Shown here piece after piece: positions 22,875 to 25,578 of a stretch of DNA of 64,000 nucleotides. The stretch lies in contig CAWCJV010000017.1 in the NCBI GenBank assembly GCA_963795845.1, positions 62,872 to 126,871 of the forward strand, in the 5' to 3' direction. A program made the position numbers and the translations under genes. Every line of letters starts with the position of its first letter. Positions within the stretch are counted from its first letter, which is position 1. The stretch is from an uncultured Acidobacteriaceae bacterium. GTDB lineage: Bacteria; Acidobacteriota; Terriglobia; Terriglobales; Acidobacteriaceae. The notes under the pieces were generated by a model. The model saw only the letters and a list, made by a program, of their open reading frames with translations, was not told where the DNA came from and ran no database searches.

Positions 22875-24077
22875 ATGAAAATTGCTGTACTTGGAGGCGA
22901 TGGCTATTGTGGTTGGGCCACCGCACTCTACCTATCGAATCGTGGCCATTCCGTTGCTATTATCGACAACTTTGTGCGTCGTCTTTGGGACCACGAGCTT
23001 GGCGTGCAGTCGCTCACGCCGATTCGCCCGCTGGCCGATCGTTTGCGGGTCTGGCATGAGCTTACCGGCAAGTCGATTGAGTTGTTTGTAGGCGATGTAA
23101 CGGATTATGAGTTTCTTGCTTCGACCATCAAGACGTTTGAGCCTGAAGCGGTGATTCACTTTGCGGAACAGCGCTCGGCTCCGTATTCGATGATCGATCG
23201 CAATCACGCTGTGGGCACGCAGGTGAATAACGTCGTAGGCACGCTGAACTTGCTGTTTGCGCTGCGCGAGTTTCAGCCTGATTGTCACCTGGTCAAACTT
23301 GGCACCATGGGCGAGTATGGCACCCCGAATATCGATATCGAAGAGGGGTATATCACCATCGAGCACAACGGCCGGAAAGATGTTTTGCCGTTCCCCAAGC
23401 AGCCGGGGTCGTTTTATCACCTCTCGAAGGTGCATGACAGCCACAACATGATGTTCGCTTGCAGGATCTGGGGCACGCGGGCGACTGACCTGAACCAGGG
23501 CGTGGTGTATGGAACTACGACGGATGAGGTCGCCCTCGATGAGGCACTGATTAACCGGTTCGATTATGACGAGGTATTCGGGACGGTGCTGAACCGGTTC
23601 TGCGCGCAGGCTGCGCTTGGGCATCCGCTCACGGTTTACGGTAAGGGCGGCCAGACACGCGGATTCCTGGATATTCGCGATACTGTGCGCTGCGTGGAGC
23701 TTGCGTGCCTGAACCCCGCGGCTAAGGGGGAGTTTCGTGTATTCAATCAGTTCACTGAGCAGTTTTCAGTACTGGATTTAGCTCACCTGGTGCAGAAGAC
23801 CGGCAAGCAAACGGGATTGAAGGTGGAGATTGATTATCTGCCGGATCCTCGGGTGGAGGCGGAGCAGCATTATTACAATGCGAAGCATTCCAAGTTGATT
23901 GATCTTGGATTGGCGCCGCACTTTTTGTCGGATTCCTTGTTGGATTCTCTGATTGATATTGCGGTTCGGTATAAGGATCGGATCGATGCGGGGTTGTTTT
24001 TGCCGCGGGTAAATTGGCGCCACACGAAGAATGATCGTCGGGTGGAAAAGCCGGTGCTTGCCAAGACGGGTCTGTAA
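22875..24077 (+). CDS. sqdB: UDP-sulfoquinovose synthase
   Basis: Long stretches match my memory of plant SQD1/SqdB: [111 protein letters not shown] and [23 protein letters not shown] lies before the ATG at 22875. Confidence 0.9.
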
Positions 24078-24087
24078 GGGTTTAAAC

Positions 24088-24115
24088 AGAGAACCGCAGA
24101 TCCCTGCGGTTCTCT
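24088..24115 (+). terminator. hairpin terminator after sqdB
   Basis: The stem is agagaaccgcag-atccc-tgcggttctct, followed by tcgctttgt, 11 nt after the sqdB stop. Confidence 0.6.
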
Positions 24116-24160
24116 TCGCTTTGTAAAAAACATTTCCAGTAGGGGTCCGCAGAACCGCAG

Positions 24161-24260
24161 GTCCCTCCGCTACGCTTCGCTCCGGTCGGGATGACAAGTC
24201 TAGCGGTAACGCTTCGGTAGGCACAAGGCTAGAGTGACGGCCTAGTCGGGATGACAAGGG
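24161..24260. repeat. two copies of the 'cgggatgacaag' box repeat
   Basis: The copies are gtccctccgctacgcttcgctccggtcgggatgacaag (24161-24198) and agtcgggatgacaaggg (24244-24260). The same box occurs at 7501, 17305, 57126 (reverse) and 57410. Confidence 0.7.
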
Positions 24261-24288
24261 AGCGGTAGCGGTGGGACCGAAATAGTTT

Positions 24289-25578
24289 CTATACGCGTTC
24301 GGGAGCTTTCTCGGCGGCGCGGATTGCGGCTGTTGGGTCTACCGGGACTAGTTCGCCGTTGCGGATGTAGTAGTAGCCGTCTCTCCAGCGAATGCTGTTG
24401 CGGGTAAAACTGGTTAGCCAGATGCAGGCTGAGAGCAAATCCCAGACTGGAAGCAGCCAGAGCTTTTTGTAAATGCCTGGCTGTTTCAAACCCCACCTTC
24501 CAATCACTTCCATCATGGCGATGCGACAGGCGAAGTAGGCGCTCAGATAGGCGAAAGCTATCTCTGGTGTCGGCTGGACAAAAATAGCCGCCAGGGCCCA
24601 GGGCAGGCCAAGAGTAAAGATCAGGCCCAGGTGTCCCCAGGGACGCATGATGCGCATGACAACGGTCCAGCGTAGACGCTTGAGAAAAAGGTCACGCAGG
24701 GAGTGAAAATCGGACACGGTCTGGATGGTGTAGTTCAGCAGTTCGACTTCGTAGCCTTGCTCTGCAATCAGGCGTCCTACTAACAAGTCATCCGCCGGAC
24801 GATTTTCAATGGCAGCATAACCACCAAAGCCGGCGAGGTGCTTACGCGTGGTGGCAATGGTAGGACCGAGAGCGAATTTAACCCCGTCCAGTTGCCTGGC
24901 AACCAGAATGCCGGCATAAAAATCGGAGAGCATCCCTACGGATTGAACACGCTGGACGAAGGTTTTTTCTTCATTGGGGATCGGCGCGTAAAAGCAGGTC
25001 ACAGCTCCTACTTTGGGATCGGCAAGCCGGGCAACGACGGTGCGCAGGTAATCCGGTTGCACACGAACGTCGCTGTCGCTGATGACGACGGTTTCGTATT
25101 TTGCTTCCGCGGTGAGACGTGCCAGTTTGGCAACTTTGTCGTTCGTGGCCACACGGCCGGAGCCGATGAGTACGCGTATCTGACATTCCGGGAAGTCGCG
25201 GATGAGTCTTTGGATGGTGGGTAATGCAGGCTCAGAGGCGTCGCCTACGCAAAAGACGATTTCGTATTCGGGATAATCCTGGCGACAGAAACTGGCGAAG
25301 TTTTCGTAGGCATCAGGATCGAGACCGCGAATGGGCTTCAGGTTGCTGACGGGAGGGGTATAGATCTCCAAGGGCCGGGATTTACGCGAAGTGCGAAAGA
25401 ACTGCCATGCACTAAAAAGAGCAAGGGCGTAATAAATCAAGGGGATAGCGGCTATTCCCAAGATAAGGTAATGCACAAAACTCAGGATCATTCCGTCCCT
25501 AATTTCCATGTGGATCGATTCACGTCCAAGCCTGAGATGCAGCCGGATTTCACCATGTAGTTCATAAGACGTACTCAA
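24289..25578 (-). CDS. membrane glycosyltransferase, GT2/GT21-like (ceramide-glucosyltransferase-like fold)
   Basis: There is an N-terminal TM, then VSNLKPIRGLD, VISDSDV (DxD), a (Q/R)xxRW-like FLKRLRWTV and C-terminal TMs. The start is ambiguous: M1 at 25578, M24 at 25509 or M30 at 25491. Confidence 0.7.
   Translation of the reverse strand: MSTSYELHGEIRLHLRLGRESIHMEIRDGMILSFVHYLILGIAAIPLIYYALALFSAWQFFRTSRKSRPLEIYTPPVSNLKPIRGLDPDAYENFASFCRQDYPEYEIVFCVGDASEPALPTIQRLIRDFPECQIRVLIGSGRVATNDKVAKLARLTAEAKYETVVISDSDVRVQPDYLRTVVARLADPKVGAVTCFYAPIPNEEKTFVQRVQSVGMLSDFYAGILVARQLDGVKFALGPTIATTRKHLAGFGGYAAIENRPADDLLVGRLIAEQGYEVELLNYTIQTVSDFHSLRDLFLKRLRWTVVMRIMRPWGHLGLIFTLGLPWALAAIFVQPTPEIAFAYLSAYFACRIAMMEVIGRWGLKQPGIYKKLWLLPVWDLLSACIWLTSFTRNSIRWRDGYYYIRNGELVPVDPTAAIRAAEKAPERV

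Follow-up and report, generated by a model that had tools for sequence, protein, structure and literature searches.

sqdB and a convergent membrane glycosyltransferase

We analysed a window of 64,000 nucleotides, the whole stretch of DNA considered here, from an uncultured Acidobacteriaceae bacterium (contig CAWCJV010000017.1, positions 62,872 to 126,871). In this window a gene for a uridine diphosphate (UDP)-sulfoquinovose synthase, sqdB, converges with a gene for a membrane glycosyltransferase of the GT21 type. The analysed stretch, 18.6-25.6 kb of the window, contains seven features and is followed, beyond the glycosyltransferase gene, by an imuA-imuB-dnaE2 cassette. Judging from sequence and gene context, we consider that the GT21-like enzyme is probably (about 0.6) an inverting, lipid-directed sulfoquinovosyltransferase.

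The sqdB gene (22875-24077, plus strand) encodes 400 amino acids from an ATG start with the ribosome-binding site GAGGAG upstream. Its product matched the structures of Arabidopsis SQD1 (1qrr/1i24) with 638 bits (E 6e-191), residues 2-383 aligning onto residues 3-384. The two proteins are about two thirds identical, with long identical runs, and the motifs GTMGEYG, which holds the catalytic Thr, and YHLSK are identical to those of 1qrr. The best NCBIfam match was UDP-sulfoquinovose synthase NF041015 with 498.6 bits, below the curated cut-off of 575; this is nonetheless the best family by 450 bits, and the protein matches the plant enzyme more strongly than the model. A first-pass annotation, made from the letters of the window, had called sqdB unmistakable, and the full-length SQD1 match with intact catalytic motifs bears this out. 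The gene is single-copy in the genome and, by its sequence, certain in its family identity as a UDP-sulfoquinovose synthase.

The glycosyltransferase gene lies on the minus strand, tail to tail with sqdB across a 211-bp spacer. Its open reading frame (ORF) was listed as 24289-25578 from a TTG codon. We found an ATG with an RBS-like (ribosome-binding-site-like) GGGA at 25491, and since all close homologues are about 391-400 amino acids long we place the gene at 24289-25491 (400 amino acids). Thus the family, the DxD and RLRW motifs and the orientation given by the first-pass annotation stand, while the start does not. The protein matched PF13506 (Glyco_transf_21) with 120.2 bits against a cut-off of 21.7. 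It carries VISDSDV at residues 136-142 and RLRW at residues 272-275, and D139, D141, D234, D235, R274 and W275 (the DSD, DD and RLRW motifs) were invariant in 25 aligned sequences. By a sequence search of the PDB, residues 18-379 align full-length with the solved ceramide glucosyltransferase (E 5e-29). The AlphaFold2 (AF2) model (predicted local distance difference test, pLDDT, 90.3) has helices at 2-35 and 265-361. Its best Foldseek matches in a PDB set that predates the ceramide glucosyltransferase entries were PcManGT, hyaluronan synthases and cellulose synthases, all membrane-embedded synthase-type GT2 enzymes. GtrB, DPMS and ArnC were matched neither in the PDB sequence search nor among the 50 best fold matches. 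In a tree the enzyme falls in a clade of its own, apart from both of its paralogues in this genome.

These features place the enzyme close to ceramide glucosyltransferase (UGCG) and to the Pgt enzymes of Agrobacterium and Mesorhizobium, with which it shares the D, D, D, (R)xxRW motifs and the membrane architecture. It differs from them in its pairing with a GT-C gene, described below, which to our knowledge is not seen for UGCG or Pgt, and in its probable donor, UDP-sulfoquinovose. GT-A enzymes of GT2 and GT21 are inverting, and all characterised relatives known to us (ceramide glucosyltransferase, Pgt and HpnI) glycosylate a membrane lipid hydroxyl. We also considered residues specific to the clade of sqdB-linked glycosyltransferases (R240, K271, R272 and others) as a signature of a sulfonate pocket. 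This was dropped, because ceramide glucosyltransferase likewise has basic residues at positions 240 and 272 and all of these residues are shared with variants linked to a sulfotransferase-like gene.

On the other side of sqdB, 50 bases ahead of it and on the same strand, lies a gene for an AsnB-type glutamine amidotransferase of 647 amino acids (20881-22824, plus strand; Pfam Asn_synthase with 310 bits and GATase_7). It matched TIGR01536 with 464 bits and is kin to the XrtA/PEP-CTERM amidotransferase; its TTG start at 20881 immediately precedes the nucleophile Cys and has GAGG upstream. Divergent from it are two adjacent genes on the minus strand for small EamA/drug-metabolite transporter (DMT)-type membrane proteins, each of a size for four transmembrane helices. 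The first (19906-20280, 124 amino acids) has ArnE as its best NCBIfam match (21.7 bits, E 2e-4). The second (about 20282-20737, about 138-151 amino acids, start uncertain) is a paralogue, 31% identical to the first, with weak matches to ArnE and phn_DUF6; 2 nt separate its stop from the start of the next gene. By sequence, the first protein is a candidate flippase subunit of an ArnE/F-like pair.

Within about 8 kb of sqdB, a Pfam/NCBIfam scan of the window ORFs found no glycosyltransferase besides the GT21-like enzyme, in agreement with the earlier reading that it was the only one in the neighbourhood. That reading also had the convergent pair right; it overlooked the EamA pair and left the amidotransferase unconnected to sqdB. 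Just after sqdB is a hairpin (24088-24115, plus strand) with a 12-bp GC-rich stem and a T-rich tail (-21.4 kcal/mol, z -5.06, 0 of 200 shuffles as stable), which is likely the terminator of the asnB-like/sqdB transcript. A scan for promoters and terminators returned sites no more numerous than in shuffled sequence and missed this hairpin. Also in this spacer, at 24161-24260, the short box gtcgggatgacaag occurs twice, along with another palindrome, ccgcag/ctgcgg.

A recurring gene set in Terriglobia genomes

We scanned one genome per species with sqdB and obtained 80 loci, all from metagenome-assembled genomes (MAGs) of Acidobacteriota (Acidobacteriaceae, Acidoferrales/Acidiferrales, Bryobacterales and similar groups). 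The window proteins were mapped onto the loci with tblastn, and all ORFs in 89 loci were then clustered without bias. A set of genes recurred: sqdB, the GT21-like glycosyltransferase, a PMT_2-type GT-C glycosyltransferase, the AsnB-like amidotransferase and the EamA pair. In the 52 sqdB loci flanked by at least 8 kb on either side, we found the GT21-like gene in 44, the GT-C gene in 42, both in 39, the amidotransferase in 34 and an EamA gene in 28, while five loci had none of these. The commonest order was amidotransferase, GT-C, sqdB and a convergent GT21-like gene. Numerous other orders and orientations were also present, which suggests selection on the linkage rather than inherited synteny. 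The amidotransferase gene was nearly always directly upstream of the GT-C gene, and the EamA pair was kept beside the cluster despite rearrangements.

The GT-C protein is about 600 amino acids long, with ArnT as its best match (74 bits). Neither this genome nor its closest relatives have the GT-C gene at the locus; here, an orthologue with 64% identity lies by itself at C3:804705-806420. The genome has two further GT21/HpnI-like genes, each convergent with a PMT_2-type GT-C gene of its own, at C3:55577-58602 (L128) and C9:441122-444227 (L129). This makes the GT21 and GT-C pair a recurring module. The C3 pair is followed by two FtsX permease genes, and the C9 GT-C matches in two frames, a frameshift or an assembly error.

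Other genes were present in some loci. Of the 89 loci, 15 had a gene for a DAO-like flavin adenine dinucleotide (FAD) oxidoreductase and 10 had one for a GFO/IDH/MocA oxidoreductase, mostly between sqdB and the GT21-like gene (as in L063, L067, L071 and L072). A further short-chain dehydrogenase/reductase (SDR) was present in 11 loci and a methyltransferase in seven. Because of these genes, the sugar may be modified further in some lineages.

We then asked how often the two genes occur together in a class sample of 350 genomes at least 85% complete. Orthologues of the GT21-like gene were defined by at least 54% identity, with a clear gap to a group of homologues at 42-50%. About a quarter of the Terriglobia genomes (99/351) encode sqdB, and two types were seen: one 72-85% identical to the window sqdB and one 59-69% identical, mostly in one family. 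Orthologues of the glycosyltransferase were found in 50 genomes from five families. The first sqdB type was present in 45 of these 50, and in 35 the gene starts were no more than 10 kb apart. Within the genus, sqdB was found in 33 of 36 genomes, and the three genomes that lack it also lack the glycosyltransferase orthologue. In 24 sampled genomes labelled as a second family, neither sqdB nor an orthologue of the glycosyltransferase was found. Co-occurrence of sqdB with this GT21 subfamily, which the first-pass annotation had left to be checked, therefore held, with the genes linked across several Terriglobia families.

Some genus members carry disrupted copies. The glycosyltransferase gene is split into two frames in G009, G018 and G032, and sqdB is truncated or contains stops in G032, G010, G016 and G011, which could be pathway decay or assembly errors in long-read MAGs. 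The distant sqdB type was seen at loci L150 (G125:C7) and L148 and L149 (both in G229). In G125 it adjoins a Bac_transf initiating transferase and a GT4 gene, so sulfoquinovose may also enter a polysaccharide.

In four genomes (G323, G395, G343 and G237; loci L153, L154, L155 and L152) an orthologue of the glycosyltransferase stands without sqdB beside it. Near the gene in all four is one for a 227-amino-acid protein whose nearest Atlas clusters are Sulfotransfer_2 (0.97, a feature score and not a homology test). In G323, G395 and G343 we also found an SDR epimerase/dehydratase, adenosine 5'-phosphosulfate (APS) kinase, an ArnC-like GT2, a flippase-like protein and a GT-C; in G237 the sulfotransferase-like protein is accompanied by an ArnC-like GT2, a GT-C and an amidotransferase. 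In the tree, the glycosyltransferases of these loci are nested inside the sqdB-linked clade, which suggests that a 3'-phosphoadenosine-5'-phosphosulfate-dependent route to a sulfated sugar took the place of sqdB, and that these variants carry a sulfated rather than a sulfonated sugar. The swap lends support to a module whose task is to add an anionic sugar that bears sulfur. Sulfatide synthesis is comparable: there, sulfation follows once the glycolipid has been made.

Several observations weigh against a sulfoquinovosyltransferase role for the GT21-like enzyme. Its orthologue is kept in the variants without sqdB, so UDP-sulfoquinovose is not its only possible donor. Conversely, 10 of the 55 genomes with the first sqdB type have no orthologue at 54% identity or above, and these counts, like the others from the class sample, come mostly from related MAGs, are not independent and are descriptive rather than a statistical test. 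In G074, G266, G254 and G170 sqdB lies apart from the GT21-like gene, which stays with the GT-C gene; in G266 (L159) sqdB remains with the EamA pair and is separated from the glycosyltransferase. The amidotransferase, closely coupled to the GT-C gene, is left without a part in the mechanism that we propose.

A further point concerns the ArnC-like GT2, which is found inside seven of the 89 sqdB clusters, at times directly between the GT-C gene and sqdB. The ArnC-like proteins of the clusters and of the sqdB-less variants matched ArnC (NF007986) full-length with 165-209 bits. The ArnC-like GT2 could be the real user of UDP-sulfoquinovose. It would then make undecaprenyl-phosphate-sulfoquinovose, which the EamA pair would flip and the ArnT-like GT-C would transfer, while the GT21-like enzyme, using an ordinary UDP-hexose, would contribute the acceptor glycolipid or a different portion of that product. 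The persistence of the GT21-like gene without sqdB and the locus in which sqdB stays with the EamA pair, apart from both the GT21-like and the GT-C gene, are consistent with this scheme, as is the presence in this genome of one ArnC-like orthologue (59% identical, C9:468901-469887). That gene is unlinked to sqdB here, with no orthologue in the window, and about 90% of clusters lack such a gene; the GT21-like gene, in contrast, ranks with the commonest neighbours of sqdB. Moreover, four PMT_2-type GT-Cs would depend on the single ArnC-like enzyme of this genome. We therefore regard this division of labour as unlikely.

Two features flank the set in the window. An FtsX/MacB-type permease gene (18671-20011, minus strand; Pfam MacB_PCD and FtsX domains) lies beyond the EamA pair. 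Such a permease was within 8 kb of sqdB in 26 of the 52 full-flank loci, making it a frequent and inconstant neighbour. Its adjacency may be chance, since this family is very abundant in Acidobacteria. Directly past the GT21-like gene is the mutagenesis cassette (25806-31289, plus strand), which consists of imuA-like (RecA/KaiC fold, 257 amino acids), imuB-like (IMS family, 514 amino acids) and dnaE2 (error-prone Pol III alpha, 1082 amino acids) genes.

Classical sulfolipid transferases and hopanoid enzymes

In plants and cyanobacteria, SQD1/SqdB acts with SQD2/SqdX. The first enzyme and the donor, UDP-sulfoquinovose, are the same as those predicted at our locus. The second enzyme differs: SqdX/SQD2 is a retaining GT-B enzyme of GT4 that makes alpha-sulfoquinovosyl diacylglycerol (alpha-SQDG), whereas the partner here is an inverting GT-A enzyme of the GT21 type. 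The cluster also adds a GT-C, a flippase-like pair and an amidotransferase that the SQDG pathway does not have. In the non-phototrophic sqdB-sqdD-sqdC and sqdA system of Rhodobacter and Sinorhizobium, sqdB is likewise in an operon with its transferase, SqdD, which belongs to GT8. There, SQDG replaces phospholipid under phosphate limitation.

We searched the genome, which is 92.7% complete, with Sinorhizobium SqdD and SqdC, with the GT4 of a Microbulbifer sqdB-GT4 operon (these from annotated plasmid records) and with a GT4 from G064, a member of the class without a GT21 orthologue. The two GT4 probes are SqdX-like by gene position only and are not validated enzymes. A cyanobacterial SqdX reference was not obtained, as a scan for genome contigs with sqdB gave only Acidobacteriota. 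In Sinorhizobium meliloti (L126) the gene for the SqdD glycosyltransferase directly follows sqdB; in our genome the SqdD probe had no match, and SqdC gave only generic SDR matches. The matches of the Microbulbifer probe, to several genes, were confined to the common C-terminal GT4 domain, and none of them was full-length. In G064, by contrast, it found a near full-length GT4 adjoining sqdB (31% over 288 amino acids), indicating that the probe works in this class. The G064 GT4 itself has no close relative in our genome, nor do the 89 cluster loci contain one. Thus the partner of sqdB is a GT4 in G064 and a GT21-type enzyme in most loci examined, and the search for SqdX, SqdD and SqdC throughout the genome, a check suggested by the first-pass annotation, yielded no recognisable canonical SQDG transferase. 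That annotation had proposed the GT21-like enzyme as a non-canonical sulfoquinovosyltransferase; the co-occurrence and the lack of a canonical transferase agree with its proposal, although the pair is only part of a larger set.

It is nevertheless conceivable that a retaining transferase encoded elsewhere, and not recognised as such, makes ordinary alpha-SQDG, the GT21-like gene being a neighbour with an unrelated glycolipid function. Many GT4 genes in this genome have a C-terminal domain in common with the SqdX-like probe, completeness of the genome is 92.7%, and sqdX and sqdB are unlinked in some cyanobacteria (PMC13436972). We consider this very unlikely, because linkage and co-occurrence extend across several families and survive rearrangement, and neither of the two SqdX-like probes nor SqdD found a full-length match. 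Furthermore, an SqdX-like GT4 was found beside sqdB in a single sampled relative, G064, which has no GT21 orthologue.

Homologues of sqdB on plasmids from other phyla have other partners. On a Pseudonocardia autotrophica plasmid (L127) the partner is an HpnB/CruG-like GT2; on a Rhodococcus plasmid (L131) the partners are a SulP transporter, a large glycosyltransferase and an alkyl sulfatase; and on an Agrobacterium At plasmid (L132) sqdB is accompanied by a group of glycosyltransferase and methyltransferase genes.

Among named bacterial families, the one nearest to the GT21-like enzyme is HpnI, bacteriohopanetetrol N-acetylglucosaminyltransferase (TIGR03472), which is its best NCBIfam match with 293.9 bits. 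If the enzyme were of the hopanoid-specific HpnI type, it would place sulfoquinovose on bacteriohopanetetrol, and a sulfoquinovosyl hopanoid would be the sole product. The genome does make hopanoids, with shc, hpnH, hpnJ, hpnE and an HpnB-like GT2 gene on contig C4, and hpnI-like genes without hpnK in Acidobacteria of subdivisions 1 and 3 (PMC5462960) also count in favour of this possibility. We found shc in 48 of 50 sampled genomes with the glycosyltransferase orthologue; shc is near-universal in the families where the cluster is common, so this figure carries little weight. However, the HpnI score is below the cut-off of 310, and of the three HpnI-like paralogues in the genome the one above it (C3:57469-58602, 350 bits), which lies outside the window, is the better HpnI candidate. 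The locus is also outside the hpn cluster, and many homologues 42-50% identical to the enzyme occur in genomes that lack shc. G229 (98% complete) holds the whole six-gene cluster without shc and hpnH, and G235 (96% complete) has sqdB and the glycosyltransferase orthologue on separate contigs, again without shc and hpnH. The cluster in a genome without shc and hpnH rules out a hopanoid as the obligatory acceptor. A hopanoid may be the acceptor in some species, and we regard a hopanoid-specific enzyme as improbable.

A predicted route to a sulfonated envelope product

We return to the reading in which the GT21-like enzyme is itself the sulfoquinovosyltransferase. SqdB would make UDP-sulfoquinovose, and the convergent enzyme would use it as donor. 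As a GT-A protein with DxD and (R)xxRW motifs, an N-terminal anchor and a C-terminal helix bundle, it is predicted to act at the cytoplasmic face of the inner membrane, moving sulfoquinovose with inversion onto a lipid acceptor. The product would be a lipid-linked beta-sulfoquinovoside and not alpha-SQDG, because GT-A enzymes of GT2 and GT21 invert. The ArnE/F-like EamA pair would be the probable flippase, and the sulfosugar would finish at the outer face of the membrane as part of an envelope lipid or glycoconjugate, with a presumed part for the GT-C. Most likely, then, the conserved set builds a new sulfonated envelope lipid or glycoconjugate rather than the classical sulfolipid of plants and cyanobacteria. 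The first-pass annotation had foreseen either a sulfolipid or another sulfoquinovose glycoconjugate. The presence of a GT-C, an ArnE/F-like pair and an amidotransferase, and of an ArnC-like GT2 in some relatives, points to an envelope glycoconjugate pathway and away from a simple Pgt-like glycosyl-diacylglycerol synthase.

Two acceptors can be considered for the GT21-like enzyme. The first is the hydroxyl of a membrane lipid. The GT-C would then decorate the same target or lipid, with a donor supplied by the ArnC-like GT2 at C9:468901-469887. This is possible, and we hold it tentatively. In its favour, all characterised relatives act in this way, and the fold is unlike that of polyprenyl-phosphate glycosyltransferases. 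In addition, some clusters add a complete ArnC/flippase/ArnT kit, and the sulfotransferase variants fit.

The second is polyprenyl phosphate. The GT21-like enzyme would load it with sulfoquinovose, the ArnE/F-like pair would flip the product and the ArnT-like GT-C would pass the sugar onward, so that lipid A, lipopolysaccharide or another periplasmic target becomes sulfoquinovosylated. This is favoured by the lack of another glycosyltransferase in about 90% of clusters, by the linkage of the flippase-like pair to sqdB and by the three GT21 and GT-C modules in this genome. We regard this as doubtful. With either acceptor the product is different from canonical alpha-SQDG.

The set resembles known envelope-modification systems, namely Arn (ArnC/ArnE-F/ArnT), GtrA/B/C and RgtE with RgtA-D, in combining a sugar-nucleotide enzyme, a membrane glycosyltransferase, a pair of small DMT proteins, here with a weak match to ArnE, and a GT-C. 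The galacturonic acid of the Rgt system is an anionic substituent, as sulfoquinovose would be here. Compared with Arn and Gtr, the glycosyltransferase in most clusters is of the GT21 type and not of the ArnC/GtrB type, and we know of no polyprenyl-phosphate sulfosugar. Sulfoquinovose in a non-SQDG glycoconjugate on a lipid carrier has a precedent in Sulfolobus acidocaldarius, where it is found in the N-glycan and depends on Agl3 (PMC4388408). That system shares the use of UDP-sulfoquinovose with the cluster; it differs in being archaeal, in its dolichol-linked oligosaccharide and in its transferases.

Sulfoquinovose is viewed as a product of phototrophs, in which SQDG is made through SqdB with SqdX/SQD2 or SqdD. 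The full-text literature that we searched for sqdB or sulfoquinovose together with Acidobacteria, undecaprenyl or ArnT does not describe the cluster. A 2026 review of sulfoquinovose cycling names the SqdB-SqdX route only (PMC13436972). In our sample, most of the Terriglobia sqdB copies belong to another gene set, whose transferase is of another family. The Terriglobia are among the most abundant soil bacteria. If our reading is right, current models of the sulfoquinovose cycle leave out one source of sulfoquinovose conjugates, namely soil heterotrophs. A beta-linked sulfoquinovosyl lipid or glycoconjugate would then represent a new class of lipids that might serve as a biomarker, and the GT21 family would gain a new donor specificity.

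Should polyprenyl phosphate be the acceptor, the product would be the first lipid-phosphate-linked sulfosugar donor, and the enzyme the first GT21 member to act as a polyprenyl-phosphate glycosyltransferase. The envelope would then carry a phosphate-free anionic decoration that is charged even at low pH. The existence of a parallel variant, which encodes APS kinase and a sulfotransferase-like protein, suggests that selection favours an envelope with a sulfur group that is free of phosphorus and permanently charged, and such a group would suit acidic, phosphate-poor soils.

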